A stretch of DNA of 32,000 nucleotides from Nitrosococcus oceani ATCC 19707 (GCF_000012805.1 NC_007484.1:660001-692000), one strand, 5' to 3'; shown: positions 3,317-32,000, counted from the stretch's first letter. The notes: a model not told the origin generated them from the letters alone. Program-made: numbers and translations.

Positions 3317-3363
3317 TTCCGCGTCTGGCGCTGTCTGGTACCTACTAGCATTAAATCAAACAT

Positions 3364-3390
3364 AACCCATTGTAATAGATGGGTTTTTTC
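3364..3390 (+). terminator. Rho-independent terminator-like hairpin downstream of guaA
   Basis: AACCCAT (3364-3370) pairs with ATGGGTT (3379-3385) across an 8-nt loop. A T-run follows directly (3386-3389). Confidence 0.55.
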
Positions 3391-3445
3391 TTTATATGCC
3401 TGGCACTGACAGGCACTCTCTAGCACCACCAAGCAGACTTTTTTA

Positions 3446-3598
3446 ATGGTATGTTTGATGGTATTGTCCGACCTAATACCACGGCTTCATAGAAATACCA
3501 TACCATGATTCTTAAACTGATCATGGTATGGGAAATAATCAAGCTATTGATATTAAAGGATAAATAAGCGAAATAACTGCCATATTTGATCATGGTAT
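3446..3598. repeat. Cluster of ATGGTAT / ATACCAT heptamers upstream of the integrase gene (candidate arm-type integrase/excisionase binding sites, attL arm)
   Basis: ATGGTAT occurs at 3446-3452, 3458-3464, 3523-3529 and 3592-3598. The inverted copy ATACCAT occurs at 3495-3501 and 3500-3506, and AATACCA at 3475-3481. The 12-mer TGATCATGGTAT is repeated exactly at 3518-3529 and 3587-3598. Confidence 0.5.
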
Positions 3599-3623
3599 TT
3601 AGAACGTGCTAGAGAGAATCCCC

Positions 3624-6083: not shown

Positions 6084-6376
6084 TGGAGCTAAAGGAATTT
6101 CTTAAAGTGGCAACCAAGCGGGAACGCGCTGATGTCGCTGTGGCATGCAGTGATTCAGTGTCCTACTTGTACCAGATTGCCGGCGAACACCGCTATGCGA
6201 GCCCCTGGATGGCGACGCAGATCGAGCGGCAGACGCGTGTTGTGGCCGACCTTTCCGATGGTCGATTAGAGCCCGTGCCGCGGGCCAGTATGGTCCGTCA
6301 CCCTGAAATCTTCTACGACGTCGGTCTGCGAGAAAATACTCAAGAAACGGGTGGAGACGATGACGGCACCCGATGA
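6083..6376 (+). CDS. Small Cro/YdaS-like regulator (hypothetical)
   Basis: Its position is divergent from the CI-like repressor. A short basic/HTH-like segment (SVSYLYQIAGEHRYASPWMATQIERQT) is present. The start is ambiguous (6053 or 6083). Confidence 0.45.
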   Translation: MELKEFLKVATKRERADVAVACSDSVSYLYQIAGEHRYASPWMATQIERQTRVVADLSDGRLEPVPRASMVRHPEIFYDVGLRENTQETGGDDDGTR

Positions 6377-7892
6377 ATCGGCACAGGTCCACGGAATATC
6401 CCGTGTTGACGTCACCCATATCCACCACTATTCACGTAATCCCCGGCGGCAGCAGAACCCAGAATACGACCGCATCAAGGCGTCGATTCGAGCTGAAGGC
6501 CTGGATCAACCACTGGTGCTTTCACAGGAGCCCGGGACTTCGGACTATGTGCTCCACAGTGGCGGCAACACGCGGCTGAAGATTCTTAAAGATCTATTTG
6601 AAGAGACCGGAGACGATCGTTTCCGCTGGGTCAATTGCGTCATCAAGCCCTGGTCACAGGAATCCAATCTGCTTTTTGCCCACCTGCGTGAAAACGAACT
6701 GCGTGGTGCATTGCCATTTATCGATAAGGCCTTGGCTGTCTTTGACGCGAAAGCCCTTCTTGAAAAAGAGCTGGCTGTCGAGACCTTGTCCCAGCGGCAA
6801 TTGGAAGAGCTGTTCAGAGAACGGGGGTTCGGCCTGAGCCACAGCATGATTTCTAAAATGGGATATGCCGTTGACACATTGTGGCCAGTAATGCCGAAAG
6901 CGCTGGCAGCCGGGTTAGGGCGGCCTCAAGTGGAAAAAATTCGTGCTCTTGAGCGGGCAGCTCGCGAGATCTGGGATCGCCGGCAACTCGGTGAAGACAT
7001 GGATTTCAACGCTGTGTTTCTCGAGCTGTGTCGACGTCACGACTGTTCCGAGTGGGACATCCAGCCATTGCGCGATGCGCTAGAAAACGAAATTGCCGAC
7101 GAGTCAGAACAGAATCGTCAGGTGGTTTATCTGGAAATGGAGGCGCAGTTATCAGGCCGACCTTTCGATTTTGTGAGCCAACCTGTAGAAGGCGAGGAAG
7201 AAGAGCAAGGCGGTACATCGGACAAGGTCTGTCGGCAGGAGAAAAACCAGTCTGCTGACATAGACCCAGTCAATGGTTCATCCCTTGGCCGCGAGCCGAA
7301 GCCTACCCAACCCCTTGATAGCAATAAGCCCAATGGGGAATCCGGAGCCAAAACACCTGCGCCTGAATTCACCCAGAATAGAAAAACGAGTCTTACCAGT
7401 AGGGATCTACGTTCATTGCGCGCTCAGTTGTGGGAGTGCGCTGCCGCCCTGGCGGAACACCATGGCTTGGGTGAAGCCGTCATTCAACTGAAGGATCAAG
7501 GACTCGGATTGCTATTGGTCGAGGTTCCTCCGCAGGAGCTGATCGATACGCTTGACCCGGACATGCTGGGTTTAGTCTCCGCGCTGTGGTGGCAACTGGC
7601 TGCCAGCGCTGAATTGACCGTTGCGCCGATTGATATTGTTCTCCACTACCTGAACAAATCTTCAGCGCTGCATGAGGCACTGGCGTCTCATGATGCAGGT
7701 TTGCTTTTTAGCAGTGTTTGGACACCGGATCCAGGTCATATGAGCAGCTTGCTCTGGCAACAGCTAAACCCACCGGATTGGCAAGTCTTACTTCGGATGA
7801 TGGAAACGTACCGAGCCATAAAACGGCTGGCGTACGACACAGGTATCGAATTGTGGGTGCCGATCGCGGGTGGTGGCAATGTCATCCAATAA
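6351..7892 (+). CDS. parB: ParB-like nuclease-domain protein, ICE (PFGI-1) class
   Basis: ParB N-terminal box motifs (HHYSRNPRR, IRAEGLDQPLVL, LHSGGNTRL) are followed by a long acidic/low-complexity C-terminal extension, as in ICE ParB-like proteins. Confidence 0.8.
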   Translation: METMTAPDESAQVHGISRVDVTHIHHYSRNPRRQQNPEYDRIKASIRAEGLDQPLVLSQEPGTSDYVLHSGGNTRLKILKDLFEETGDDRFRWVNCVIKPWSQESNLLFAHLRENELRGALPFIDKALAVFDAKALLEKELAVETLSQRQLEELFRERGFGLSHSMISKMGYAVDTLWPVMPKALAAGLGRPQVEKIRALERAAREIWDRRQLGEDMDFNAVFLELCRRHDCSEWDIQPLRDALENEIADESEQNRQVVYLEMEAQLSGRPFDFVSQPVEGEEEEQGGTSDKVCRQEKNQSADIDPVNGSSLGREPKPTQPLDSNKPNGESGAKTPAPEFTQNRKTSLTSRDLRSLRAQLWECAAALAEHHGLGEAVIQLKDQGLGLLLVEVPPQELIDTLDPDMLGLVSALWWQLAASAELTVAPIDIVLHYLNKSSALHEALASHDAGLLFSSVWTPDPGHMSSLLWQQLNPPDWQVLLRMMETYRAIKRLAYDTGIELWVPIAGGGNVIQ

Positions 7893-16478: not shown

Positions 16479-17286
16479 ACGTCGCGCGGGAAAGCCATGC
16501 GTCGGATTTGTCGGGTTCTGTCTATGCCTTACGTTGCCCGTTTACGCGGATAGCCTTCAGACAGCGGAATCGCAATCTTCGAACACACCGGCGATTGAGC
16601 AATCCGTGACAGAACGTATTGACTCGCTGGCGTTTCGTGCTAACCAGTGGGGGATAGATGAATCGGAATGGCAGCGTTACCAATCCCTGATGCAAGGTGT
16701 CCGGGGCAGCGTGAGTCCTGCGACCTTGTCACCCCTCGAAGTGCTGGGCATTCACGCGCGTAGCGCTGATGAACGTCGGCGCTACGCAGAGCGATGGGCG
16801 GTTATGATGCGAGACGATGCTGAGCGCATTCTGGCGTTTCAGCGGGCCTACGACGACGCCCAGCGGCGCTTGTTTCCCAACGGCTTGTTGATCGACCCCG
16901 GTGTTGTAGCTTCCACTAAGCCGGATCAAGGTCTGGCTGGAAAATTCGCGTGGCAGTCGTCTGACCGGGTGTTGTTCTTTACCGATACCCAATGCCCGAC
17001 CTGCGATGCGGTGCTGGAGCGATTGTTGAGCCAGATCAAACACTTCTCAGGCATCGATCTGTACCTGATCGATGTGTCCGCCGGGGACGAATCCCGTATA
17101 CGCGACTGGGCGGCCTCGAAACAGATCGATCCGCAATGGGTCAGCGAGCACAAGATTACCCTGAACATTGATGCGGGTGCGCTCAACCAGGTCGCAAACC
17201 ACACGGGGCAACAGGGACAGGATTTACCGATACTGATACTACGCCGGGAAGGGCGATTGGATCCCTTGCCGGCATCACGATTTTAA
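16462..17286 (+). CDS. Periplasmic thioredoxin-like ICE protein with CxxC motif
   Basis: It has a signal peptide and a CPTC motif within FFTDTQCPTCD, a thioredoxin/DsbA-like context. Its position before the transglycosylase matches the remembered ICE family (PFL_4693-like). Confidence 0.6.
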   Translation: MKMSTERRAGKPCVGFVGFCLCLTLPVYADSLQTAESQSSNTPAIEQSVTERIDSLAFRANQWGIDESEWQRYQSLMQGVRGSVSPATLSPLEVLGIHARSADERRRYAERWAVMMRDDAERILAFQRAYDDAQRRLFPNGLLIDPGVVASTKPDQGLAGKFAWQSSDRVLFFTDTQCPTCDAVLERLLSQIKHFSGIDLYLIDVSAGDESRIRDWAASKQIDPQWVSEHKITLNIDAGALNQVANHTGQQGQDLPILILRREGRLDPLPASRF

Positions 17287-17298
17287 GGAGTAGCGCTC

Positions 17299-17862
17299 AT
17301 GGCACGCCGGTTAATCACGGTCTGCTTTGTCGGCGTTCTGTGGTGGTCGACACCCGCGCAGTCAGAATCTGTGCCGGTGGGATATAAGAAAGTCGCGAGT
17401 GAATACGGTCTTCCTCCTGCCTTGCTCTATTCGGTAGCCCTGACCGAAAGTGGGCAAAGCTCGCTTAGCGAAGGACAGTTTCGACCCTGGCCGTGGGCAC
17501 TCAATATCGACGGTGAAGGACACTATTTCTCGTCACGTCAGCTGGCATGGCATGCCCTGCAGGCGGCGTTAACGGAAACGGAAGCCTCGTCGGTGGATGT
17601 CGGTCTGATGCAAATCAGTTGGCGCTACCATCGGGCAAACTTGGGCTCATCCTGGCAGGCGCTGGATCCCTACCACAACTTGCGAGTAGCCGCCGCGATC
17701 CTGCGCGACTGCTTCGTCGAACACACCCACTGGATTCAAAGCGCCGGCTGCTATCACGCACCGAATGATCCTGCCCGAGCTGACCTCTATGGTCAGCGGG
17801 TCAAGGCGCACTGGATGCGGTTGACCGATACACCAACGGAGGTGCACCTTGAGTATCCGTAA
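17299..17862 (+). CDS. Lytic transglycosylase (SLT domain)
   Basis: Signal peptide, catalytic Glu context ALTESG, plus the GLMQI and AYH-type motifs. Confidence 0.85.
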   Translation: MARRLITVCFVGVLWWSTPAQSESVPVGYKKVASEYGLPPALLYSVALTESGQSSLSEGQFRPWPWALNIDGEGHYFSSRQLAWHALQAALTETEASSVDVGLMQISWRYHRANLGSSWQALDPYHNLRVAAAILRDCFVEHTHWIQSAGCYHAPNDPARADLYGQRVKAHWMRLTDTPTEVHLEYP

Positions 17863-18430
17863 ACAACGAATGTTGTCTGTCCTCGTGCCCGCATTGTTAC
17901 TCGCGATAGGCGGGGGTTCTTCCGCATTGGCGGATCTGACAGTGATTTATGACAGCGGCCAAACCCAACCTTTGTCGCCGTTACTTGGTCCGTTCCAGGC
18001 GGATGAAACGCCGTCGACCGATCCTGCCAAAGCAAGCGAACCGAATCCATCGTCCAAATCTATGCTCGGCCCAGCAGTATTGAGTAACTTGTTGCCGTTG
18101 CACTCACCCGGATTGGAGGTCGGCGATAGTGGTGACACTCCACTGAATCCCGAGGTGCTGACGCGGCTCGCGCAGGGTAATCCGCGCCCGTTTTTTTTGA
18201 TCGGATCGGACGCGGTTTCTTTGGAGTGGCTGGCCTACCACCGGGACACACTCAGGAGCTTGGGTGCGGTGGGCATGTTGGTGCAGGCCGATACCGAGGC
18301 CGACGTTAGACGGGTTGCCGAGGTGGCGCAGGGCTTATCCATCACCCTGGGTTCAGGAAGTGATCTGGCCGCGGCGCTGGGCATCGATCGCTACCCAGTG
18401 TTGATTACGCCTGACGGTATTCGGCAGTGA
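17849..18430 (+). CDS. Secreted conserved ICE protein (PFL_4695-like)
   Basis: It has a signal peptide (LLLAIGGGSSALA), overlaps both neighbours (coupled), and is in the expected backbone position. The start may be TTG 17849 or ATG 17870. Confidence 0.5.
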   Translation: MSIRKQRMLSVLVPALLLAIGGGSSALADLTVIYDSGQTQPLSPLLGPFQADETPSTDPAKASEPNPSSKSMLGPAVLSNLLPLHSPGLEVGDSGDTPLNPEVLTRLAQGNPRPFFLIGSDAVSLEWLAYHRDTLRSLGAVGMLVQADTEADVRRVAEVAQGLSITLGSGSDLAAALGIDRYPVLITPDGIRQ

Positions 18431-20568
18431 GCACGCATCCGATGGAGGCGTTGTTGCGGCCTCCCGTCGAGTTGTGGTCCACGGCCACCGCGTTCGCGGC
18501 GGGTACACTGGCCTGGTTGGCGCCCTGGGCCTTGATGATGCCACCGGGTATCGCGATGGCCACCAGTCTGACCTTTTTCGGTTTTGGCATGTGGCGTGGC
18601 CGTCAGGCCTGGCGGGTACTGCGTTACCAGCACCACATGAAGCGACTGCCGAAGTATCAAGTGCGGGCCAATCAGATCCCCGTCAGTCGCCATAAGCTGT
18701 TTTTGGGCAAAGGCTTTCGCTGGACCCAGCAACACACTCAGCGTCTTCGCGATACCCTGAAGCCCGAGGTGCAGAGTTACGTTCAGCCGGGCACGCTCTA
18801 CCAGTGGGCGCGACAAAAGGAGGTAGCCTGGGAATCGATTCCAATCCTGTCTTTACTGGCCAAAGCCCTGCGCAGTCGATCCCGTTGGAACCCGCTGGCA
18901 CCATTACCTGCCGTCGGCGGCAAACCCGCACTGCACGCGGTTGATCCTCATGAACAGCCCGTGTGGATGGATCTGGGCGAAAGGGTTGGACACACGCTGG
19001 TGTTGGGTACCACGCGCGTCGGTAAGACACGCCTGGCGGAACTGCTGATTACCCAGGACATCCGCCGCGGTGATGTCGTCATTGTCTTCGATCCGAAAGG
19101 GGATGCCGATCTGTTGCGTCGCATCTACGCCGAGGCAAAGCGGGCCGGTCGTCTGGACGATTTTTATCTGTTTCATCTCGGCTTCCCCGAATTGTCCGCA
19201 CGCTACAACGCCATCGGTAATTTCTCCCGCATCACCGAGGTTGCGACCCGTATCGCCAATCAGTTGCCCAATGAGGGCAACTCCGCTGCCTTCAAAGAGT
19301 TCGCCTGGCGTTTCGTCAACATCATTGCGCGATCGCTGGTGGCCTTGAAGCGCCGACCGGACTACCAACAGATCCGCCGTTACATCAACGATATAGAGCC
19401 CTTGTTTGTGGAGTATGCCGGCCATTGTGCCCGCGTTGCCGGCATCGATGCCTGGGCGTCCCTGGTTGAAGAACGCGCAGGGGATATCAAAGAGCGCAAC
19501 CTGTCCAATGCACTGCGTGGCCGATCGATGGAAGCCATCGCCTGTATGCGGTTGTTGCAGGAGAGGGCCATTTATGACCCCGTCCTGGATGGCCTTATTT
19601 CCGCATTCAAATACGACAAGACCTATTTCGACAAGATTGTGAGTTCCGTTGGCCCGCTGATGGAAAAACTGACCACCGGCACCATCGCCGCGCTGATATC
19701 GCCGGATTACCAGGATGAACACGATGCCAGGCCGATCTTTGAATGGATGGATGTGGTGCGCCGCAAGGGCATCGTTTATGTGGGACTGGATGCTCTCACC
19801 GATACGACGGTGGCCAGCGCGGTCGGGAATTCCATGTTTGCAGATTTGGTGTCTGTGGCGGGGCATATCTACAAGCACGGCATCGCGGCTAATGGCGCTG
19901 ATGCGTCAGAATCAGAACGCCAGCGGCATTCGATTCCCACCATCTCCCTGCATGCGGATGAGTTCAACGAGTTGATCGGTGATGAATTCGTGCCGCTGTT
20001 GAACAAGGCGGGCGGGGCAGGCTTTCAGGTCACGGCCTACACCCAGACCTGGTCGGACGTGGAAGCGCGTATCGGCAGTCGGGCCAAAGCGGGGCAGGTA
20101 GCCGGTAACTTCAACACAATGCTGATGCTACGAGTGAAGGAGCTGGATACCGCTGCGATGCTGACCGAGCAGTTGCCGCGGGTTGAAGTCTTCACCCTGA
20201 TGAGTGTCTCCGGCGTCGATGATTCATCGGATCCCGGTTCCGGGGTCGACTTCAAATCCCGCAACGAAGACCGGATCAGTGTTTCGGAAGTGCCGATGCT
20301 GACCGCTGCCGATATGGTCACGCTGCCCAAGGGGCAGGCCTTCGCGCTGTTGGAAGGTGGCCAGCTCTGGAAAATCCGTATCCCGCTGCCGGATAACCGT
20401 GAGGATGCGGCCATGCCGAACGATTTTGAGGAGATGGCCGATGCCATGCGTCGCAGCTACATCACCAACGATCACTGGTATCGGGTCACTGACCATTGGT
20501 GGCACGCCGTCTCCGAGGCGACGGTCGAGTCTGCAGATTCTTCTCCAAATTCTGAGGGGCAAAACTAA
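18427..20568 (+). CDS. traD: Type IV coupling protein TraD (conjugative coupling ATPase)
   Basis: Two N-terminal TM helices, Walker A GTTRVGKT, a Walker B-like motif (SLHADEFNE), and 713 aa in length. Confidence 0.9.
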   Translation: MSTHPMEALLRPPVELWSTATAFAAGTLAWLAPWALMMPPGIAMATSLTFFGFGMWRGRQAWRVLRYQHHMKRLPKYQVRANQIPVSRHKLFLGKGFRWTQQHTQRLRDTLKPEVQSYVQPGTLYQWARQKEVAWESIPILSLLAKALRSRSRWNPLAPLPAVGGKPALHAVDPHEQPVWMDLGERVGHTLVLGTTRVGKTRLAELLITQDIRRGDVVIVFDPKGDADLLRRIYAEAKRAGRLDDFYLFHLGFPELSARYNAIGNFSRITEVATRIANQLPNEGNSAAFKEFAWRFVNIIARSLVALKRRPDYQQIRRYINDIEPLFVEYAGHCARVAGIDAWASLVEERAGDIKERNLSNALRGRSMEAIACMRLLQERAIYDPVLDGLISAFKYDKTYFDKIVSSVGPLMEKLTTGTIAALISPDYQDEHDARPIFEWMDVVRRKGIVYVGLDALTDTTVASAVGNSMFADLVSVAGHIYKHGIAANGADASESERQRHSIPTISLHADEFNELIGDEFVPLLNKAGGAGFQVTAYTQTWSDVEARIGSRAKAGQVAGNFNTMLMLRVKELDTAAMLTEQLPRVEVFTLMSVSGVDDSSDPGSGVDFKSRNEDRISVSEVPMLTAADMVTLPKGQAFALLEGGQLWKIRIPLPDNREDAAMPNDFEEMADAMRRSYITNDHWYRVTDHWWHAVSEATVESADSSPNSEGQN

Positions 20569-20570
20569 TT

Positions 20571-21302
20571 ATGGCGGAACCGACGGATCCCCGCCGACCC
20601 GTCACGCGCCCCGGCACATTCTCCCGGGTTTTGACAGGGCTAGCCCAGTGTCTTAAGTGGCTGTTTCTCTCACTGATATTTTCCGTTCTGATTGAATGGA
20701 TCGGCATGGTGTTCTGGTGGGAGGAGCAGGGGCTGGATCACAGCCGACAGATGCTGGTGAACGAGTTGCAGTTCCTCGGCGCAGACTTTCACCGCAGCTG
20801 GTTAACGGCTCATCCCATGCAATTCGCCAGTGATTTGTCCGACCGGTTTTACCATATCGCCTTTGAGTGGACCGGTATTGTCGATCTTATCCAGTGGATT
20901 ACGCCGGCCCCGGGCCTTGAAGAGTCCGGCGTGCGCCCGGTGCTGCACCGGTTTTACCGGCCAGTTGCTGACTATGTCCTGGCCGGTATGCAAATCACGC
21001 AGGTTTTTGCGGTACGTCTCGCCATCCTGACGCTGGCGACGCCGGTATTTGGACTGTTCACCCTGGTGGCACTGGTTGATGGTCTGGTGCGGCGGGACCT
21101 GCGGCGTTGGGGCGGCGGCAGGGAAAGCTCTTTCGTCTATCACTATGCCAAGAAAGCCGCCATACCGCTGATCATCATGGCCTGGGTGCTGTACCTGGCG
21201 CTACCGTTCAGTTTGCACCCGTCCTGGATCATCTTGCCGTTCGCTCTGGCCTTTGCCTTTGCTGTGACCATCACGGCCAGTACCTTCAAAAAGTATCTCT
21301 GA
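20571..21302 (+). CDS. Integral membrane ICE protein (PFL_4697-like)
   Basis: A multi-TM protein that starts 3 nt after the traD stop. It occupies the backbone position after traD. Confidence 0.6.
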   Translation: MAEPTDPRRPVTRPGTFSRVLTGLAQCLKWLFLSLIFSVLIEWIGMVFWWEEQGLDHSRQMLVNELQFLGADFHRSWLTAHPMQFASDLSDRFYHIAFEWTGIVDLIQWITPAPGLEESGVRPVLHRFYRPVADYVLAGMQITQVFAVRLAILTLATPVFGLFTLVALVDGLVRRDLRRWGGGRESSFVYHYAKKAAIPLIIMAWVLYLALPFSLHPSWIILPFALAFAFAVTITASTFKKYL

Positions 21303-21386
21303 TACAGTTGACTGTACCATTACAGTTTGCTAGACTGCATTTAAGCACTGTAAAGATACAGTATAAGTGCTGTTAAGGAGATAATC
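21303..21386. promoter_or_regulatory. Candidate autoregulatory operator/promoter of the Xre-RES operon
   Basis: TACAGT occurs at 21303-21308, 21321-21326 and 21357-21362. ACTGTA occurs at 21311-21316 and 21347-21352, and a degenerate ACTGCA at 21334-21339. The RBS AAGGAG is at 21375-21380. Confidence 0.45.
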
Positions 21387-21788
21387 ATGATCGCTCAAGC
21401 CGAACAACTGCTGCAACGTGGTTCCAGTGTCACCAGTTCACTGCTCCCGGCGATTTTCGCTATTTTCAGCCAGTGGCGCCTGACCGGTGCCCAGCAGATG
21501 ACCCTGTTGGGGCTCAGCAACGAGAAGACTCTCTATAACTGGAAGAGCCAGCCGGAAAAGGCCAAGTTAACCAGGGACCTACTGGAACGGGCCAGCTATA
21601 TCCTGGGGATCTACAAATCCCTGCAGATCCTGTTGCCCGATCAGGCGCTTGCCGATCAGTGGCTGGCTACCCCCAACGACAACCCGTTATTCAATGGCAC
21701 GGCCCCGCTGGAGCGGTTGCTGGCCGGACAGGTGGTCGATCTGGCCGTGGTCAGGAATTTCCTTGATGCGGAGCGGGGTGGCTGGTGA
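21387..21788 (+). CDS. Xre/MbcA/ParS-type antitoxin (DUF2384 C-terminal toxin-binding domain)
   Basis: A 133-aa protein directly upstream of a RES-domain gene and overlapping it (GTGA). The conserved C-terminal W...P...L.G..P...L pattern is present (WLATPNDNPLFNGTAPLERL). Confidence 0.8.
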   Translation: MIAQAEQLLQRGSSVTSSLLPAIFAIFSQWRLTGAQQMTLLGLSNEKTLYNWKSQPEKAKLTRDLLERASYILGIYKSLQILLPDQALADQWLATPNDNPLFNGTAPLERLLAGQVVDLAVVRNFLDAERGGW

Positions 21789-22477
21789 TCGATATCGATA
21801 CGCTACCGGGTAGCGAGACAAATGAACCGGTTTATCGGGTCATTCTGTCACGCTATCCGCAGATCCACCTGTTTGAGCGAGTCTCCAATCCACAGGATTG
21901 GGACGTGCTCTATGCCGTGGAGTCTCTAACCAACCCCAGGTTACGGGATGAGGTGGGTGATATTCGCCTGGTGCCACCGGAAGACCGGGTGTATGGCGAT
22001 GGCGCGTCCTGGATCATGGCGGCTTTCACTCACCCGCCGGTGGATGGACGTGGTGGCCGCTTCAATCGGGATTTCGGCATCTACTATTGCGCCGCGGATG
22101 AGGCGGTCGCCATCGCCGAATCATCCTTTCATCGGGCACGATTCCTACGTGAATCCAGAATCGACAAGACCACCCAGGAGATGCGCGTTATCCGCGCGCA
22201 GCTGGGGCCGACAACCCTCCAGGATGTGCGGCACCTGGTCGGAGATGCCATCTACGATCCCGACGACTACGGCGAGGCACAGACACTTGGCGATACGCTT
22301 CGGGCTGCCAATAGCTTCGGCATTCACTACCAAAGCGTGAGAGCGAAAGGGGAGTGCTACGGGGTGATGCGACCCAAGGCGCTCACCGATGCCATCCACT
22401 GGCGCTATCTGCGTTACCACTATGAACAGGGGACAGTAGTGAATGTTGAATCCCTGGACGGCAGTGGCAAGAGGTGA
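21785..22477 (+). CDS. RES-domain toxin (NAD+-targeting family)
   Basis: The R-E-S triad contexts are GGRFN (Arg), AIAES (Glu) and HYQSVR (Ser). At 230 aa it has the typical size, and it is paired with the DUF2384 antitoxin. Confidence 0.85.
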   Translation: MIDIDTLPGSETNEPVYRVILSRYPQIHLFERVSNPQDWDVLYAVESLTNPRLRDEVGDIRLVPPEDRVYGDGASWIMAAFTHPPVDGRGGRFNRDFGIYYCAADEAVAIAESSFHRARFLRESRIDKTTQEMRVIRAQLGPTTLQDVRHLVGDAIYDPDDYGEAQTLGDTLRAANSFGIHYQSVRAKGECYGVMRPKALTDAIHWRYLRYHYEQGTVVNVESLDGSGKR

Positions 22478-23100
22478 TGGCAATGTATAAAGAGCTGCTG
22501 TGGATCTTCACCCAACTACCGGACGATTACATCGTCCTCGATACCGAAACCACCGGCCTGCCTGACGAAAACGGACTGCCTGATATCGTGACACTTGGCA
22601 TCACCGTGGTGAGCAATCGAGAGATTGCGGAATCCGTCGAGTTCAAGACAAGACCACAAAAACGCATTTCAGAAGAGGCACAGTCGATACACGGCATTAC
22701 CAACAAACAGGCTGCTGCATTTGACTCCTTTGATTCCCAGTGGCAGCAGATTTCCGAATATCTGAAGCATCAACTTATCGTCATTCATAACGCCAGTTTT
22801 GACTGGCCGATCCTGCTTGATCATGTTTTACGACACGGATTGGCAATGCCGGAAATTCAAGGCGTATTTTGTAGTCAGAAAGCGGCTATTCCCTGGGCAC
22901 AGGCAATGGATCTCCCATGTAGCCACAGAGGTCCTTCGTTAGACACATTAACGAAAGCACTTGGGGTCGAAGATCTCCGAGTCAAAGAAGATGGGTTACA
23001 TGGGGCGAAGATTGATAGCCGGCAGTTGGCTCAGGTTGTACAGGTGATAAGTCGAAATGAAAATATGGAATGGGTCTTAATCGTGAATCACAGGGGCTAG
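22477..23100 (+). CDS. DEDDh 3'-5' exonuclease (DnaQ/epsilon-like)
   Basis: Exo I is VLDTETTGL, Exo II is HNASFDWPIL, and Exo III is HGAKIDS (H-x4-D). The start overlaps the RES stop (TGATG), indicating translational coupling. The alternative GTG at 22474 would give a 4-nt overlap. Confidence 0.85.
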   Translation: MAMYKELLWIFTQLPDDYIVLDTETTGLPDENGLPDIVTLGITVVSNREIAESVEFKTRPQKRISEEAQSIHGITNKQAAAFDSFDSQWQQISEYLKHQLIVIHNASFDWPILLDHVLRHGLAMPEIQGVFCSQKAAIPWAQAMDLPCSHRGPSLDTLTKALGVEDLRVKEDGLHGAKIDSRQLAQVVQVISRNENMEWVLIVNHRG

Positions 23101-23239
23101 AGATGTGCATATGCGTCCGGCTACAGATGCGGTCTCTCGATTTTCCAACTTGGGATGACCAAGTTGAAGAGAAAACAGGAATCAACCCAATCATGGTAAA
23201 CAACTGAAGCGGGCAACTACCGAAGGTTTCAAGATAGCG

Positions 23240-23589
23240 ATGACACAATCACCTGAACTCGCAGGCGGCGAAGGTTTCACCTTTGAGGGCGATGCGGCTG
23301 CATTCTATCTCGTCGCGCTACTAGCCGAAGCTTATGCTCCCGGCATCGATGATCGAACCGTTGTTCGAGTTTCTGTTCAGCAACGTGATTTCGGTGAACC
23401 GCTGGATGATGTGATCGTCGACTTTGAAGATGCCTCAAAGAACCCCGCTCGACTTAGCCTCCAGGTAAAGCGTTCGCTCACAATCAGCAGTGCAAAAACG
23501 AACAAAGACTTCCACGAAGTAATCCGCGACAGTTGGGCAACCCTCAACAAGTCAGACTTCCGCTTCAACGTCGACCGCTACGGGGCCGC
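23240..23589 (+). pseudogene. 5' fragment of the IS-split giant gene: PD-(D/E)xK (Cap4/Mrr-like) nuclease-type N-domain
   Basis: The translation MTQSPELAGGEGFTFEGDAAAFYLVALL...EPLDDVIVDFED...LSLQVKRSL shows a D...(D/E)...QxK arrangement (D codons from 23405, QVK at 23462-23470). The track ORF continues to 23620 only because it reads into the IS left end before hitting a stop. Confidence 0.7.
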
Positions 23590-23662
23590 CGTAAGCTTCC
23601 CCCTATCTGACACAGGCTGAAGTTGGAGTTTTCTGGCAGGATATTACTGCGAGGAGACGAAG

Positions 23663-23929
23663 ATGAAACGAAGCCGATTTACCGAAAGCCAGATCGTATC
23701 GATTCTGAAAGAGGCAGATGCCGGAGCAAAGATTAAGGATCTTTGCCGCAAACACGGCATCAGCGATGCGACTTACTACAACTGGAAGGCGAAGTACGGT
23801 GGCATGAGTACATCGGACTTGCGACGGCTGAAGGAGACGGAGGCTGAGTTGTCGCAGTACAAGAAAATGTATGCGGAGCTCGCCCACGAGAATTACGCAC
23901 TGAAGGATCTCATTGAGAAAAAGCTCTGA
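23663..23929 (+). CDS. IS3-family transposase OrfA (HTH)
   Basis: The sequence MKRSRFTESQIVSILKEADAGAKIKDLCRKHGISDATYYNWKAKYGGM... is the classic IS3/IS407-group OrfA. It has a C-terminal leucine-zipper-like region. An A-run AAAAAG at 23918-23923 lies near the end. Confidence 0.9.
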   Translation: MKRSRFTESQIVSILKEADAGAKIKDLCRKHGISDATYYNWKAKYGGMSTSDLRRLKETEAELSQYKKMYAELAHENYALKDLIEKKL

Positions 23930-23964
23930 GGCCACTGGATAAGCGCGAAGCGGCGCAGCACCTG

Positions 23965-24783
23965 GTGGCCAAACACGAGTTGAGCAAGACGAAAGCTTGC
24001 GCGGCCGTACAACTGTCGCGCTCGAGCTGGTATCGGCAGCCGTCGCAACAGGCGGTACGAGATCAGCCTGTCATCGATGCGCTCAACACGATGCTCAAGA
24101 AGTACCCACGCTGGGGCTTTTGGATGTGCTATGACCGAATGCGACTGGACGGCCATGCCTGGAATCACAAGCGAGTTTATCGAGTGTACACAGCGATGAA
24201 GCTGAATCTTCCTCGGCGCAAGAAGCGCCGGCTACCGCAGCGTGTGCAGCAGCCGATGGTGGTTGAGGCCCGAGCCAATGCTGAATGGTCTTTGGACTTT
24301 ATGAGCGATGCGCTGTACCACGGTCGCCGCTTCCGCACGCTGAACGTGCTTGATGAGGGCGTCCGTGAAGCGCTGGATATCGTCATTGATACATCCATCC
24401 CTGGCGCTCGCGTTGTGCGGACCTTGGATCGTCTCATCGAATGGCGCGGCAAGCCGGATGCAATACGGGTGGACAACGGGCCAGAGTACATCTCCCAGGT
24501 GTTCTCGGAATGGTGCGAGAAGCACGGCATCAAACTGAACTACATCCAGCCAGGGAAACCGAACCAGAACGCGTACATCGAACGCTTCAACCGCACGTAT
24601 CGACATGAGGTGCTGAATGCCTACGTGTTCGAATCGTTACGGCAAGTCAGAGAAATCACGCGAGCATGGATCATCGAATACAACGAAGAACGACCGCACG
24701 ACAGCTTGGGAAAAATACCGCCTGCCATGTTCCGACGGCAGGTCGAAAACGCCAGAAACTCTACTTTAGAACTGTGTCATTGA
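23965..24783 (+). CDS. IS3-family transposase OrfB (DDE catalytic domain), probably expressed as an OrfAB fusion by -1 frameshift
   Basis: It is in the -1 frame relative to orfA. The DDE contexts are WSLDFMSD, IRVDNGPEY and NAYIERFNRTYRHE, followed by the conserved YNEERPHDSLG. Confidence 0.9.
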   Translation: MAKHELSKTKACAAVQLSRSSWYRQPSQQAVRDQPVIDALNTMLKKYPRWGFWMCYDRMRLDGHAWNHKRVYRVYTAMKLNLPRRKKRRLPQRVQQPMVVEARANAEWSLDFMSDALYHGRRFRTLNVLDEGVREALDIVIDTSIPGARVVRTLDRLIEWRGKPDAIRVDNGPEYISQVFSEWCEKHGIKLNYIQPGKPNQNAYIERFNRTYRHEVLNAYVFESLRQVREITRAWIIEYNEERPHDSLGKIPPAMFRRQVENARNSTLELCH

Positions 24784-24797
24784 CGGGGAAGCTTACG

Positions 24798-27700
24798 CCG
24801 CAGTTGGTACGGTTACCCCTGCCAAAGAAAGGGCACTAAAGACCCTTTGCGATTGGGCGCGCGAAAGCCTGACGGCTGACCATTTCCACGCTCGATTTGC
24901 CAAGGGCGGCAGCGCCAGTGCAGAAATCAAAACGGTCAAGAACGACGTCGTTACTTTACTGGAAGCGGTGAAGGGGGCGCCGTGCACGAATGAAGAAGAG
25001 CATCAGTTACTTGCACATTTCGTGCTCATACAGTTCGACTTCCTTCGCGAAGGTGCCACTGATCCCCCTGATGCCATTAATCGTGTTCGGGATTGCCTAG
25101 CGCCAGATGACACAGCCAAGGCACCGCTTGTCTGGTCGCGAGTAGTTCAGCTAGCCCGTTCATCAGCTGGAAAAGCTGGTCAGTTTGATCGCATACGACT
25201 TGTTCGCTCGATTTCACCTGTCGCACGCCTACGCGGCGCGACGTCATTACGTCTCAACCTGGACAAGTTGACAGAGCTCGCGAAGAGCTATGCGAACCTA
25301 ATTCCGGACGATATTGGGGGAACAAAGCTCGACCGCATCTCGCTCCTTGAGAGCATTGATGCAAAACTCGCCACAGCTCGTGCCGTCCAGGTGCGCGGCC
25401 TGCCAGGAAGTGGCAAATCAGTCGTGGTGAGGCGAGCGGTACAGCGCGCGTTAGAACACGGGCCGACTCTCTTCCTCAAAGCCGAACAGCTCGAAGGGAC
25501 CAGCTGGATCAGCTATGCGAACTCACAGGGTTTATCGGGTGCTCATCTAGAGCAACTTCTCGTAGAGATCGGTGCTGCCGGTACCCCCGTACTCTTTGTC
25601 GATGCGATCGATCGCATTGACAAAGAACACCAGCCCATCATCGTCGATGTGATTCACACCATTGTGGAATCACCACTGCTTGATAACTGGCGCGTAGTCG
25701 TTTCCCTTCGTGACACCGGCATTGAAATGCTTCGTAATTGGTTGGGTGAATTCCTCGATACCCTTAATGTCGAGACGCTAAGCGTTGGTCAGCTGAGCGA
25801 CGATGAGGCTGAGTCGCTCGCAAAGGCCAAGCCACACCTGAGATCGCTCCTGTTTGGATCCGCTCAGGTGCGAGAAATCGTCCGACGGCCCTTTTTCGCG
25901 AAAGTGCTGAACCAGAGTTACATGGTCGACTCCAGCAGTTCGACATTCGCCCCCCAATCTGAAGTCGGTTTGATTGAGAATTGGTGGCGGAGGGGTGGCT
26001 ACAATGAGACGGGTCAAAACGCGTTAGAACGGCAGCGCGCACTGCTCGACTTGGCAAGTGTGCGTGCCCGCCAGCTTAGTCAGCCGATTGCCCTTAGCCA
26101 GCTAACATCCGTCGCACACATAGATGGTCTAAGATCAGACGGCATACTCCAAAATGCCCGTGAAGGGGTTTCCGTCCGCTTTGCACACGATATCTTCTTC
26201 GAATGGGCCTTCTTCCATGTCCTAGCCGATCGCGGACTCCAATGGGTGGAGGTTATCAAGGCCTGCGGCGAGCCACCGGCAGTAGCCCGCGTCGTCGAGC
26301 TGACTTCGCAATGGGAATATGCGCAGGGAACAAACTGGCCAGCGCACCTTGCCCAAACGGAGAGTTCGGATCTTAGGTCACAATGGCTGCGAGCGTGGCT
26401 GGTCGGTCCTCTTGGGACTGCGAGATTCGATGATGATGAAGACCAATTCGCGACGGCCGTCATTGCCAACGACTTTCGACTTTTCAGGAAGACGCTCGTC
26501 TGGTTTCAGGCTGAGAAGACCACCCCGAATGAGAGTATCCTTACTGGTGGTCTCCCACAGGAACAACGCCAACGGTTCGCTGATCTTCTCGGATGGCCTT
26601 CCGACTTCTCCGCGTGGCGTCGCCTCATCAATTTTATACTACAGCGCATTGCAGATATTCCGCAGCGGCTTTATCCAGAGATCGTCTCCATCTTCGAGGT
26701 CTGGCAGAATGCCTTGGCCGACCTCCGCAACCCGACGTCTCATGCACTTCTGCAACAATGCGCTGTCTGGCTGGCCGCCATCGACGCGATCAGTACTGCC
26801 GATAAGCCTGATGAGAACTCTGCTTATTGGGGGGCGGTTCCCGGCTTGGGTGCTCTCAGAAAATCGCTGGGCCAGCTCCTCTTAAGATCGTCGAGAGCCG
26901 AGCCATCACTTTCAGCCGACTATTTGCGACGGGTCGCCAACTCGGAGCGCATCCGAGACGATGCATTTCATGACATCATCGCCTACTCACCCGTCCTTGC
27001 CCAATCGCTACCTCAGTCTGTGGTCGAGCTTTCGCTAGCGTTCCTGCTTGGGGAGCTTCCGGATGAGCAAGTCGCCCGAGAAAAACAGGAACTTCATGAT
27101 ACGGCCGAGTGGCGCAAAGCAGTTTTAGCAAAGCCGGAAGCCGAACAGACGCGTAAAGAAAAAATGGCACTTTCGGGCGGATTCTATCTGCGAACCGTCG
27201 GCGATTTCAGCTACCACGACTGGGAAAGGCTTTCGATCCACGACGACCACCGAAACTTCTGGCCGCCTTCGCCACTTCGAGAGCCCTTTCACTCGCTTTT
27301 CCAATCATCTCCTGACCATGCACTGCGGCTCCTTCGAGAACTCTGTAATCATGCGATGACCGCATGGCGACAGCTACATCATCACTCACACGACCGTGGG
27401 GGCACCCCTATACCGCTCGAACTTACGTTTCCCTGGGGTACCCAAATTTTCTGGGGCACCGATCGAGAGTATCTTTGGTTTCGGTCGACGTGGGCACCTA
27501 AAGCCATCGGCTGCGCATTCATGGCGCTCGAGGAGTGGTGCTTCACCGAGCTTGAGCAAAGCCGGACTGTTGACGAGCTGATCCAGCAAATCGTCGAGGG
27601 GAACGAGTGCATCGCCATCCTAGGAATGGCGTCTATGCTCGCTCTCCACACCGAGTGGGTGTCTGAAACAACATTGCCGCTCTTCACCTCGCAGCGCCTG

Positions 27701-29836
27701 TTGGCCGCTGACCATAATCGAATGGCGCAAGACCTTTCATCATCGACGAACCTGATCGGTTTCACGAGTAGTACTGACAAACCCCACATTGAGGCAATCC
27801 AGATGGCAAATGCTAGGACTGTCCGTAAGACACAGCTTAGTTGGATGGTACCCAGGTTTGTCTTTGCCACGGAGCCATTCCGCGATCGAGCACGCGAAGC
27901 GATCCTCAATTTCAAGAACGATCTGCCCTTCCAGTACGAAGAACACCGCGACATTCCGGAGGCACGGGAGTACCTCACAAAGCAGGCCCTCGAATATGCC
28001 GAGTTGGCGGATCCGGAAAACTATCAGGCCTACCGCACCGAAGAGGGTTCGGACCAAATAGCGATTGTCCACGTCAGCCCATCTGCTGCTCAACCTGAAA
28101 ATATCGCCAGAGCCGAAGAGGCTAATAAGTACCTCAGGCAGACCGGCCTCTGGACATGGGCATCCAAATCATTCGAAGAGACGACATTGAACGACACTTA
28201 TACGATCGAGGATGCCATCGTATTGTCCAAGGAAGCGGACGCCAGCGACTTATTCGAACACCCGAACAGCGAGAATGAAGAAGAGCAGTTGGGGATGCGT
28301 CGAGGTGCAGTCGCCGCCACAGCAGCCATAGCACTTAACTTTAGAGAAGGGTGTACACACGAAGACCTTGAGTGGGCTCGTGGTGTCCTAGGACGCGCAA
28401 TCCGTCTGCCAGAAAAGTTCGAATCGATGTGGTCCCCTGGTTCCGTCGTCCCGTGGCACCAGGGGATCTATGTGGCACGGGGGCTCGCAGCGGATCTCCG
28501 GGAAGGTACAGCAGCGCGCAGCACGGCCAATGACCTCCTCGGGCTAATCGCGCACCCACTTGAAATTGTTGCGTTGACCGCACTCGAAGAGGCCTGCAAG
28601 CTTTGGCCTAATGACTCGAAGTTGACTTGGGCCGCGCTGATATTGGCGTTTTCACTCTGCCACGTTCCTCCGCGGCCGCGTGACCAGCCCCGTCAACACG
28701 GTGAGGCACTCCATACATCAAATGAAGCACAAGCCGCTGTCAACGCGGCGCTTGCGTTCTATGAGCACGGAAGCGAATGGGCGCCTCTCCCTTTACCGCC
28801 TCCAGCCTGGGTGAAGGTCGAACCTGAGAAGGGCCGGCGTGGGTATCAAAGATATGAAGATTACGACTTGGATGATGCAACCGACGCTGCTGAAGTATGG
28901 GGTGAACCGGATGTCTTCTGGCACTCAAAGCAGGCTGCAGAAGTCCTTCAGCGCATCCCCTTGGACGAGGTTCTAAACAGCAGTGCAAAGAGCGTGCTTC
29001 TCGACTTCCTTGCCAGTGTTCTCGACTGGACCAACCAGAAGAATGCACCACCGTGGGTGAAGCCCGGACGCCGCGATCGGTCGGCGACCCAAATCTTTGA
29101 GTGGACGCATACGCTCGGATCAAGGCTGGGATACATGGCTGGCCTTATGCCGCTTGCCGACTTTCAGGCGCGCTTTCTTGATCCGATTTTGGACCTCGAA
29201 GGCGACAATTGCTGGTCTCTTCTTTCGCCATTCACGAGCACCTTTGTCTGCGCTTACGTGTACGATGCGCCGGTCGCTCCAGTCGATACAGTTGCGATAC
29301 TCGATCTCTGTCTCGCGCGGCTCCTCCAGGACCGTACCTTCAAGCGTGACACCTACCGGAGCGGAGAATTTTCAGGCTTCGATCAACCCGAGCTTGTTCG
29401 TACGTTGATGTTTGTCTCAGTCGAACGCGCCGATTTGGCCGCTCGCTACGTGAATGGCGACTGGTCCGAAATCAACCGCATCCTGCCCTTGATTGATCGA
29501 TTTATTCGCGCTGGCGGATGGGCTGCTTCAGTGATGGACTCATTCTTGACGCTCTGTGAACGAGCAAGAGCTAACTACCCGGCCGAAGCCTTCGCAGAGC
29601 AAGTGCTCGCAATTATCGGCGACGGTCCCGACAGCCTGAAAGGTTGGCATGGAACATTCATCCCAGCACGCATTGCAGAGCTGGTGCAACACTTTGCACA
29701 TCGTGACGCGCCGATGACGCTGGCCCTGGCACAGAAGTTCCTGCGAATCCTTGACATGTTAGTCGACATGGGAGATCGGCGAAGTGCCGCGCTGCAGCTT
29801 GGTGAATCGTTCCGCGAGATTAGTGCGCTCTCTTAG
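24798..29836 (+). pseudogene. 3' fragment of the IS-split giant gene: P-loop STAND-like NTPase plus a C-terminal region of roughly 1,350 aa with no recognised motif
   Basis: The frame is open from the IS right end. Walker A GLPGSGKS is at 25397-25420 and Walker B VLFVDAID at 25589-25612, followed by VVVSLRD. I recognise no other motif in the remaining region. The track ORF 24968-29836 uses an internal GTG as its start. Confidence 0.75.
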
Positions 29837-30132
29837 CTCGATGAGCATGCATTACTGGCTTTATCAGATCTGAGTTTAGTTCTGACGGACGAAGTTGTGA
29901 GAGTGATCGGTAACCTGTAATAAATAGACAAGGCCGTTAGTGTTCAGAATAACGTTTGACGATCACTAGTCAGATCTTTCGTGCGTGAAAATCGAGTGTC
30001 CACATTTTTAAAGCGTGGCAGACGGTGTGTGCGGGCTAGCAAACCACCCCACCTACCGAATAGATTTCCCATCGTCCACCGCCACTAATTCTCGCACTAT
30101 GCCCCGTAACAACTCACGGGAGCAGCAGTGCC

Positions 30133-30435
30133 ATGAAACGCCAATTCTGGCCATCAACTTTTCTGATTCTAGGCTTGTGCGTCGCGCCGGCGGCGTTCGC
30201 TGATGCAGACGCGGAGCGTGAGGCGCTGGCGAAAATCATCCATGAGCTCAATGCCCTCGAGACGCTAATCAATCGCGCTGAGGTCAATGCTGATCGGGAT
30301 TCCCGTATCCGATTTCGTTATGACTGGCTGCGTCAGGATCTGAAGCAGATCAAGGACGGCATCCAGTCACACATCGATTCCCCCCGCGCGCAGCCTCGCT
30401 CATTTCCGCCATTGCGCGGCGATTACCGTCGATAG
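30133..30435 (+). CDS. RAQPRD-family ICE protein (secreted)
   Basis: Signal peptide MKRQFWPSTFLILGLCVAPAAFA. The family-defining motif RAQPR lies near the C-terminus (DSPRAQPRSFPPL). Confidence 0.8.
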   Translation: MKRQFWPSTFLILGLCVAPAAFADADAEREALAKIIHELNALETLINRAEVNADRDSRIRFRYDWLRQDLKQIKDGIQSHIDSPRAQPRSFPPLRGDYRR

Positions 30436-30444
30436 GTCTGGAGC

Positions 30445-30675
30445 ATGACCGCCGCACAGCAAACTGCATTCCAGGCCGGCTCCGGTATTACGCCAGCCAC
30501 CATGCTGACGTCGATCGCGTCGATGGTTCTGGTGTTGGCGTTTGTCTGGGTTATCTGGGTGGCGTTAGGGGTTTTTCGGGCCTGGCAGGAAGGGCAAGCC
30601 ACGGTCTTCGATCTGACCTGGAGCACTCTGCGAGCAAGCATTGTTTTGATGGTTTTGGGTTTCTATTTGCGGTGA
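30445..30675 (+). CDS. Small 2-TM ICE membrane protein (DUF3262 / PFL_4701-like)
   Basis: A 76-aa protein with two hydrophobic helices. It follows the RAQPRD gene directly, as in the remembered backbone. Confidence 0.6.
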   Translation: MTAAQQTAFQAGSGITPATMLTSIASMVLVLAFVWVIWVALGVFRAWQEGQATVFDLTWSTLRASIVLMVLGFYLR

Positions 30676-30775
30676 GTCAATCGAGAAAGTCCGGTAAGGG
30701 CAAACGGCGATGCATCGCAGTGGGATGCGGGGATAGGCCCCCTTTTTATCAGCGTTACAGAAGAGGACATTTGTT

Positions 30776-31153
30776 ATGGGTACATCAAATACAAAAATCG
30801 GCACCAACAAAAAATCGTCTGCCAATCGCAAGTCGCTATTGGCGGCGGCCGCGGTGCTTTTCCCACTGCCGCTCTGGGCGGCGTTGCCGACGCCGGTCGC
30901 GCCGAGCACCGCTCCGCCGGCCGGTGACTGGATAGGCCTGATTCAGGGCTATATCAAAGATGGTGGTTTGGTACTCGGACTGGCCATTGCAGTTCTGGGA
31001 TTTCTCTGGATCGCGTACCTGGGCTTCGCGAAATTCAATGAAGCTCGCCAAGGCAAGGCGGAGTGGGCTGAAGTCGGTGTCCTGGGGATCGTCGGCGCGA
31101 TTGTGCTGATCTTCGCCAGCTATCTGCTCACAGAAGCGGCTGGCGTTATTTAA
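30776..31153 (+). CDS. ICE membrane protein, pilin-like (DUF2976-type)
   Basis: A long leader with a signal-like segment (LLAAAAVLFPLPLWA) and two C-terminal TM helices. This resembles the VirB2/TrbC-type topology. Confidence 0.55.
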   Translation: MGTSNTKIGTNKKSSANRKSLLAAAAVLFPLPLWAALPTPVAPSTAPPAGDWIGLIQGYIKDGGLVLGLAIAVLGFLWIAYLGFAKFNEARQGKAEWAEVGVLGIVGAIVLIFASYLLTEAAGVI

Positions 31154-31191
31154 CTCCCGACGTCAACAGCTGCTTGCAATAGGAGACGCGA

Positions 31192-31572
31192 ATGTCCAAC
31201 GACCATGAAACTCTGGCGGATCGGCTCAATGCCGAGCCCGCCATCTTTAAAGGCTGCTCATCCTCTGAGCTCGGCATGATTGTGGGGTTTGCCATCGTGG
31301 TATGGCTGCCCCTCAGTCTCTTACTGGCCTGGTTGCTGGGGGCAATCACTATGGGCTTTGGTATCGCCGGTGTCGGTGTGGTGGCCACCGTCGTGGTTAT
31401 GGCGACGTTGTTTCAGCGTATCAAACGCGGGCGGCCTGAGGGCTATTACCAACAATGGCTACGTATTCGTTTGCAAACGATGGGGCTGTATCGCACGCCC
31501 TGGGTATTACGTAGCGGGTCCTGGGACATTGGGAGAACGCACTATGCGCCGCTACCGACTCGAAATCGATAA
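31192..31572 (+). CDS. ICE conjugal-transfer membrane protein (DUF3487-type)
   Basis: A 126-aa protein with a two-helix hydrophobic core (IVGFAIVVWLPLSLLLAWLLGAITMGFGIAGVGVVATVVVMA). It is in the expected backbone position. Confidence 0.55.
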   Translation: MSNDHETLADRLNAEPAIFKGCSSSELGMIVGFAIVVWLPLSLLLAWLLGAITMGFGIAGVGVVATVVVMATLFQRIKRGRPEGYYQQWLRIRLQTMGLYRTPWVLRSGSWDIGRTHYAPLPTRNR

Positions 31573-32000
31573 CGTGCGGTCACATTTGCGCTCCCTGTGG
31601 GTCGTGATCGGCTTGCAAGGACTGATCATTCTCGCGCTCTGGATCGGCTGGAGCCAGGCACCCAAGCAGCTGCGAGTTTATGTACCACCTGATTTGCGCT
31701 CGGGCGCTGTGTTGGCCGCAGAGGAAGTACCTCCAGCGAACGTCTATGCCTTCGCGTTCTACATTTTTCAGCAGCTCAATCGCTGGCCCGAGAACGGCGC
31801 GACAGATTACGGCAATGCGATTTTTCGGATCTCACCCTATCTGACGCCTCGCTACCGCAATGATCTGATCGAGGATATGGAGTTGAAGGCCAGACGTGGT
31901 GAGCTGGCTTATCGGGTGCGCGGTGTTCATGAAGTGCCGGGGCATGGCTACGAAGAACGCCGCGTTGACGTGTTGTCCTCCGACGCCTGGATCGTGTGGC
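31544..32000 (+). CDS. ICE transfer protein (DUF2895-type), partial, runs off the window end
   Basis: Not in the ORF track because it is truncated. The ATG at 31544 overlaps the end of the previous gene. The translation MRRYRLEIDNVRSHLRSLWVVIGLQGLIILALWIGWSQAPKQLRVYVPPDLRSG... has one N-terminal TM helix and stays open to position 32000. Confidence 0.6.
   Translation, partial: MRRYRLEIDNVRSHLRSLWVVIGLQGLIILALWIGWSQAPKQLRVYVPPDLRSGAVLAAEEVPPANVYAFAFYIFQQLNRWPENGATDYGNAIFRISPYLTPRYRNDLIEDMELKARRGELAYRVRGVHEVPGHGYEERRVDVLSSDAWIVW

Follow-up and report, generated by a model that had tools for sequence, protein, structure and literature searches.

EcAvs4, the AVAST type 4 protein (Protein Data Bank (PDB) entry 8DGF), is an antiviral STAND (signal transduction ATPases with numerous domains; Avs) protein that combines an N-terminal nuclease, a STAND nucleoside triphosphatase (NTPase) and an α-helical sensor of ~1,000 amino acids (aa) in one large polypeptide. 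Its effector is an Mrr-like nuclease, and the solved Avs3 and Avs4 complexes are tetramers. A census of 360,000 STAND sequences, with a STAND tree of 589 clades and 684 sensor clusters, distinguished at least 90 Avs families, among which the portal protein is a target of both Avs11 and Avs4, and the capsid protein a target of Avs7, Avs8 and Avs10 (Lee et al. 2026, PMC13581612). In SeAvs7, a Cap4-type nuclease is activated by tetramerisation (Lee et al. 2026, PMC13581612). Here we describe a giant gene at positions 23240-29836 of a 32,000-nucleotide stretch of the Nitrosococcus oceani ATCC 19707 genome (NC_007484.1:660001-692000; hereafter the window), which is split by an insertion sequence (IS). 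When restored, the gene very probably encodes a stand-alone pattern-recognition receptor of the Avs class, from a divergent family that resembles Avs4. An initial annotation of the window had read it as an Avs-like defence protein, and this was essentially right: the restored protein carries a predicted Cap4-like nuclease, an Avs4-type NTPase and an Avs4-like sensor, and the gene occupies a defence slot of an integrative and conjugative element (ICE).

Reading frame and domains of the restored protein

In the unedited window, the gene appears as open reading frames (ORFs) of 126 codons (23240-23620) and 1,622 codons (24968-29836), with two transposase ORFs between them. Joining the two gene fragments in silico (Table 1) gives 5,385 nucleotides (nt), comprising 1,794 codons and a stop, with zero internal stops; the junction reads ...FNVDRYGAAVGTVTPAKERALK..., matching the sequence proposed in the initial annotation. 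The intervening element has the features of an IS3-family insertion sequence, with two consecutive transposase ORFs in different frames, a short target duplication and terminal inverted repeats that are perfect over 13 bp (CGTAAGCTTCCCC). Its limits and the 4-bp duplication are verified by copies that retain the empty site. In uninterrupted orthologues the insertion site reads ...TACGGGGCCGCAGTTGG..., the empty site being GGGGCCGCAGTT, and alignment with L077, a metagenomic ICE sharing 91-93% identity with the window, stops at position 23589 and resumes at 24798, with a 4-nt overlap. The giant gene of L077 is uninterrupted (1,794 aa, 92% identical). Intact orthologues and L077 therefore agree that removing the IS and one copy of the duplication restores a single frame.

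The IS falls at codon 117, within the nuclease core and in predicted strand β4 (residues 113-121). Because it parts E16, D56 and K77 from the NTPase and sensor, the window copy is almost certainly non-functional; the 1,622-codon remnant is without the effector. The insertion is recent, as the IS is the sole lesion in the gene, and given this recent knock-out the window copy is chiefly an example of defence-gene turnover. A promoter and terminator scan of the locus returned nothing exceeding shuffled expectation.

The central module is a STAND NTPase, as annotated, and is closest to Avs4: the NCBIfam Avs4 model NF041815 matched residues 291-753 (E = 2.4e-31), and the PADLOC Avs4 model also matched (E = 2e-21). 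Walker A (GxPGxGKS) and a D..D motif are nearly invariant family-wide. The coordinates first assigned to Walker A and Walker B were exact; the ~600 codons said to lie between the nuclease motifs and Walker A had included the IS, and Walker A actually lies ~240 codons past QVK. Pfam searches with the whole protein gave only sub-threshold matches to AAA_16, NACHT and nSTAND, none of which lay in the N- or C-terminal parts.

The C-terminus had been described as ~1,350 aa without a recognised motif. The part that follows the NTPase is ~1,040 aa long and matches the Avs4 sensor by both profile and fold. With a single orthologue as query, EcAvs4 (8dgf) was the sole PDB match, in both NTPase and sensor. 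A 40-sequence family profile matched 8dgf with E = 4.9e-22 in three collinear stretches (family/Avs4 residues 270-363/183-280, 556-779/447-670 and 924-1327/762-1175), with E = 2.6e-7 for the NTPase stretch and E = 5e-7 for the sensor stretch (924-1327) alone. An AlphaFold2 model of the sensor (predicted local distance difference test score (pLDDT), 89.3) matched 8dgf_B, which is Avs4 bound to the portal of phage PhiV-1, with a Foldseek E of 4.1e-15 and a template modelling score (TM) of 0.61 over 1,101 columns. The next match had E = 1.6e-4 and TM 0.21, and all others were generic karyopherin- or HEAT-type solenoids (E ≥ 1.6e-4, TM ≤ 0.29). We conclude that the ~1,040 aa at the C-terminus share remote homology with the portal sensor of EcAvs4. 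The initial annotation had suggested that an uncharacterised ligand may be sensed; because of this homology, the ligand class is likely to be one already known. We discounted a weak Rv2179c-like Pfam match (residues 1454-1544, E = 0.04) as noise.

Residues 1-290 are predicted to adopt a Cap4/DUF4297-type PD-(D/E)xK nuclease fold and would thereby supply a nuclease effector, in line with the initial proposal. The GGxGFxFE / DD / LxLQVK layout noted there is present in the restored protein as GGEGFTFE (residues 9-16), PLDD (54-57) and LQVK (74-77). An AlphaFold2 model of the domain, built on 38 sequences, had a mean pLDDT of 90.6, and its top Foldseek match in the PDB was the Lamassu nuclease LmuA (9hr5, 1e-7). 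Other matches were Cap4 (6vm5, 2e-6, and 6wan; range 2e-6 to 1e-4), a chain of the Escherichia coli Hachiman defence complex (8zue, 5e-6), the SeAvs3 N-terminal domain (8dgc, 1e-4) and DUF4297-HerA; those to Cap4, LmuA and SeAvs3 had a probability of 1.00 and a TMq of about 0.45. In the model, helix 1 bears E16, strand 69-80 bears Q75-x-K77, and D56/D57 immediately precede strand 58-63. This placement fits the canonical PD-(D/E)xK layout, the putative equivalence to the Cap4 active site being judged from topology. E16, D56, D57, Q75 and K77 vary rarely or not at all in the family, even among members with an overall identity as low as 24%. A PDB sequence search with the N-domain profile returned no nuclease, and matched the linker and P-loop alone. 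The best PADLOC match of the domain (residues 1-244, E = 1.3e-23) was DUF626_VIII, which in type VIII retrons serves as the accessory protein (Mestre et al. 2020, PMC7736814).

Proposed mechanism and ligand

By analogy with EcAvs4, SeAvs3 and SeAvs7, we propose that at rest the C-terminal α-solenoid sensor and the ADP-bound NTPase would keep the Cap4-like nuclease inactive. During infection, the sensor would close around a conserved protein of the phage, for which its Avs4 sensor fold makes the portal protein the most probable candidate. Replacement of ADP by ATP at the Walker A/B site would lead to oligomerisation, and the oligomer would join the nuclease domains into an active double-stranded DNA endonuclease that degrades DNA and aborts infection.

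Several observations weigh against this reading. The sensor is just 14% identical to that of EcAvs4, so its ligand specificity could have changed. The NF041815 score of 108 bits falls far short of the 1,500-bit equivalog cut-off, and the protein is therefore not an Avs4 equivalog but a member of a remote sister family at most. The PADLOC Avs4 model aligns over profile positions 192-461 of 1,570, which is the NTPase part alone. Within residues 1-290, Pfam gave zero matches even at E ≤ 1, DUF4297 included, and the putative catalytic residues are assigned solely from the modelled fold, secondary-structure position and conservation. Fold and target are also loosely coupled either way, because unrelated sensors share targets (Lee et al. 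2026, PMC13581612). Finally, we found no experimental test of any family member in the literature.

The low sensor identity bears most directly on the ligand. Together with a sensor ~100 aa longer than that of EcAvs4, the many sensor-target combinations across >90 Avs families (Lee et al. 2026, PMC13581612) and environmental or marine hosts with phages unlike coliphages, it would fit a protein of the same architecture and mechanism whose diverged sensor binds a non-portal protein of a phage or mobile element. We consider this quite unlikely, as the entire sensor superposes on the portal-bound Avs4 sensor and the profile matches are collinear along it. Under the sensor clustering criteria of Lee et al. 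2026 (Foldseek E 1e-10, TM 0.40, 80% coverage; PMC13581612), it would probably join the Avs4 sensor cluster, and the family may well be present in their data.

In four loci (L031, L043, L052 and L035), the NTPase and sensor are those of the family, but the N-terminus is a different domain of ~180 aa, joined to them in frame. All four are metagenome-assembled genomes, assigned to Pseudomonas, Leptothrix, Burkholderiaceae and Thiopseudomonas, and from residue 263 onward the variants share 67-78% identity with the window protein. The swapped domain, which spans 9455-10000 in L052 and reads MDIFTTMLRILGSIARALLPKGKQLYAERSAG..., has no Pfam or PADLOC family and just 7 short database relatives. Judged from sequence, the variant looks like an exchange of the effector for an unrecognised domain. 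A bolder interpretation, in which the Avs4-type sensor has possibly been retargeted to a non-portal ligand and the swapped N-domains would be a new kind of cell-killing effector, is unlikely but deserves some weight.

Distribution and the defence slot

To place the proposed Avs4-like receptor among its relatives, we drew on several searches. A search for uninterrupted orthologues, suggested in the initial annotation, found over 120 database entries, each 1,787-1,823 aa long and 77-92% identical across 100% of its length, from Nitrosomonas, Desulfurispirillum, Salinisphaera, Halomonas, Burkholderia, Pseudomonas, Alcanivorax and Acidobacteria. Intact examples are WP_090287471.1 (Nitrosomonas mobilis), WP_226507994.1 and WP_073434282.1. 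In a scan of one genome per species (~185,000 species), the giant gene was present in 70 genomes, with 59 full-length loci spanning Gamma-, Beta-, Alpha- and Deltaproteobacteria, Verrucomicrobia, Acidobacteria, Nitrospinota and Sulfuricurvum. Its carriers are bacteria of marine and environmental origin. The C-terminal 1,041 aa, used as the query of an exhaustive HMMER search, returned 896 clusters at 50% identity. The non-fragment matches listed were mostly 1,690-1,825 aa long with the matching region at the same place, which therefore points to a large family of fixed architecture. No homologue was found in phage records. Databases name the members only 'ATP-binding protein' or 'hypothetical protein'. 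This large family of 1,800-aa proteins, missed by current defence-finder models, can now be read as one of Avs4-like immune receptors. The novelty is modest: Avs-type architecture is already known, and what is new is the divergent, unannotated Avs4-like family.

We compared the window copy with six orthologues, some from other phyla. The ratio of non-synonymous to synonymous substitution rates (dN/dS) was 0.13-0.20 in each of the three domains, and dS was merely 0.2-0.7, other phyla included. At the sequence level, this indicates purifying selection and recent horizontal spread across phyla. The same distribution bears on whether the protein is immune at all. Its uninformative database names and the sub-threshold Pfam matches to AAA_16 and NACHT would also suit a regulator or housekeeping ATPase of the STAND class that sits on mobile elements by chance. 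We find this hardly credible given the fusion of a conserved Cap4-like nuclease effector to an Avs4-like sensor, the patchy occurrence with such low dS between phyla, the residence in defence slots and the existence of a variant whose N-terminal domain has been exchanged, as is typical of Avs families.

Broken copies of the giant gene occur in many genomes (L072, L073, L070 and L065; L074, L056 and L058 (Seongchinamella sediminis)), in forms that include stops after residue ~135, a remnant that covers residues 16-513 and a gene spread across three contigs. Disruption or decay of the gene, as in the window, seems to be common. The 3' part of the gene (24797-29826) is 93.9% nt-identical to that of a Pseudohalioglobus lutimaris ICE (L013), whereas the ICE backbone flanks (16645-23589 and 30034-32000) are merely 80-83% identical to it, a contrast that suggests, from these alignments, cassette exchange between ICEs rather than co-divergence.

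The giant gene is carried by an ICE of the mating pair formation type G (MPF-G), integrated next to guaA. The gene order in the window is guaB, guaA; tyrosine integrase; AcaB-like, ParM-like, T4 coupling protein and DUF4400; Xre antitoxin, RES toxin and DEDDh exonuclease; the giant gene; and RAQPRD, DUF3262, DUF2976 and DUF3487 (Table 1). The ICE starts directly downstream of guaA (stop at 3316), the tyrosine integrase lies within region 3317-4823, and integration appears to have taken place at the 3' side of guaA. In other genomes, GMP synthase domains (GMP_synt_C and GATase) matched two genes flanking the giant gene. A 513-codon ORF of the ICE (6351-7892) was without a Pfam match at E ≤ 0.01.

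Table 1 Features of the giant gene and its surroundings in the window
Feature	Position	Strand	Basis
Tyrosine integrase	3606-4823		
T4 coupling protein gene, before DUF4400	18427-20568		
DUF4400, ICE backbone gene	20571-21302	+	
Xre-type antitoxin	21387-21788	+	
RES toxin	21785-22477	+	
DEDDh/RNase_T exonuclease	22474-23100	+	
Variable cargo cassette of the ICE (giant gene and flanks)	23078-30040	.	L075 alignment breaks
Giant gene, 5' fragment (codons 1-116 and 2 nt of codon 117; nuclease motifs inside)	23240-23589	+	
Motif G9-G10-x-G12-F13-x-x-E16	23264-23287	+	
Motif P54-L55-D56-D57	23399-23410	+	
Motif L74-Q75-V76-K77	23459-23470	+	
Left target-site duplication copy, CCGC	23586-23589	.	Empty site in orthologues; 4-nt overlap of L077 alignment
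IS3-family insertion sequence, 1,208 bp	23590-24797	+	Transposase ORFs, inverted repeats
IS terminal inverted repeats	23590-23602 and 24785-24797		
IS orfA, HTH_Tnp_1	23663-23929	+	
IS orfB, rve/rve_3	23965-24783	+	
Right target-site duplication copy, CCGC	24798-24801	.	Empty site in orthologues; 4-nt overlap of L077 alignment
Giant gene, 3' fragment (last nt of codon 117 to stop codon)	24802-29836	+	
Rest of predicted Cap4-like nuclease domain and helical extension, residues 117-290	24802-25321	+	
Avs4-type STAND NTPase module, residues 291-753	25322-26710	+	
Walker A GLPGSGKS, residues 316-323, with K322	25397-25420	+	
Walker B VLFVDAID, residues 380-387	25589-25612	+	
Conserved HDIFFEWAFF	26186-26215	+	
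α-Helical sensor, Avs4-sensor-like fold, residues 754-1794	26711-29833	+	
RAQPRD, ICE backbone, first gene past the slot; then DUF3262, DUF2976, DUF3487	30133-30435	+	

To examine the cargo hotspot predicted in the initial annotation, we gathered 80 metagenomic ICE loci via the DUF4400 gene and counted slot content in the 44 in which both flanking genes were located. From the last conserved upstream gene to RAQPRD, the slot is hypervariable, ranging from 0.16 to 7.8 kb and holding 134 ORFs in 106 clusters. Cargo in related ICEs includes Gabija (GajA/B), the cyclic oligonucleotide-based antiphage signalling system (CBASS; cyclase, E1-E2, JAB, CapH/P and patatin), PARIS-like, AriA, PtuA, OLD and GmrSD genes and reverse transcriptases. 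The L075 ICE, whose backbone shares 95-98% identity with that of the window, aligns as far as window position 23077 and resumes at 30041, with different cargo between, and these breaks set the limits of the cassette. Slot content and this boundary together bear out the hotspot. It represents a precisely bounded defence-cassette slot in marine MPF-G ICEs, running from the Xre-RES-DEDDh trio to RAQPRD, that could be searched for new systems. Among the many other cassettes in the variable slots of loci L075-L150 are several very large single genes, for example at L082/L118:7737-14018 (2,094 aa), L097:12576-17555 (1,660 aa), L122:13900-17994 (1,365 aa) and L094:8686-12486 (1,267 aa).

Defence genes are found beside orthologues elsewhere as well as in the ICE slot, as a comparison of neighbourhoods, also suggested initially, revealed. 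The Halomonas copy adjoins a type II CBASS on an ICE, and the Desulfurispirillum copy adjoins a PIN toxin-antitoxin pair, IS91 and a KAP NTPase; other immediate neighbours are integrases, transposases, Avs2, Dsr2, HmaC, reverse transcriptases and AbiEii. We found no conserved partner gene, with no neighbour family present in more than 5 of the 59 loci, and the giant gene is therefore a self-contained single-gene unit, as had been proposed.

The toxin-antitoxin module reported next to the gene is the Xre/RES pair. With the DEDDh exonuclease it forms a tight trio on one strand with overlapping stop and start codons, which is present in nearly all ICEs with a DUF4400 identity of at least 68%, immediately upstream of the variable slot. 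Adjacency and shared strand of the four genes, the overlap of RES and DEDDh at 22474-22477 and a DEDDh exonuclease that also adjoins the Halomonas copy might be taken to suggest one multi-gene system of trio and giant gene. Such a system is very improbable: the trio is found regardless of what the slot contains, it coincides with the giant gene in L013, L074 and L077 only, no neighbour is conserved across the 59 loci, and the Halomonas exonuclease is unrelated in sequence and lies beside the CBASS operon. The Xre/RES pair belongs to the ICE backbone and has no functional tie to the giant gene.

Comparison with known systems

The restored protein shares the overall layout of EcAvs4, which is the sole PDB entry matched by sequence along the NTPase, post-NTPase part and sensor, and by far the best structural match of the sensor. 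Unlike EcAvs4, it has a predicted Cap4/DUF4297-like effector, is ~200 aa longer and differs in its 14% sensor identity and 108-bit score against the 1,500-bit cut-off. The family occurs not in enterobacteria but in environmental Proteobacteria, Verrucomicrobia and Acidobacteria.

With SeAvs3 (8DGC) and SeAvs7, whose nuclease is activated by tetramerisation, it shares the fusion of an N-terminal Cap4-type PD-(D/E)xK nuclease, here predicted, to a STAND NTPase. The NTPases and sensors of these two proteins belong to other Avs families, and their targets are the large terminase (Avs3) and the major capsid protein (Avs7); neither sensor matched that of the restored protein in sequence or fold. Cap4, the DUF4297 effector of CBASS, and LmuA are the best structural matches of residues 1-290, and the restored protein would be an oligomerisation-activated DNA endonuclease of the same kind. 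They are triggered by a SAVED domain and cyclic oligonucleotides, or by the LmuB/C complex, which resembles structural maintenance of chromosomes (SMC) complexes, and not by a fused STAND NTPase.

PADLOC, which the initial annotation had recommended, matched its Avs4 model to the NTPase, and none of its models spans the full length. The candidate system PDC-M54A matches the N-domain and NTPase (residues 10-590, E = 7e-14), aligning over profile positions 18-608 of 1,621 and leaving the sensor uncovered. DUF626_VIII matches the N-domain only, likewise leaves the sensor uncovered, and the C-terminal half of the retron protein is different and annotated as an esterase. Taken together with EcAvs4, these comparisons place the restored protein in a divergent Avs4-like family within the antiviral STANDs, distinct from Avs4 proper.

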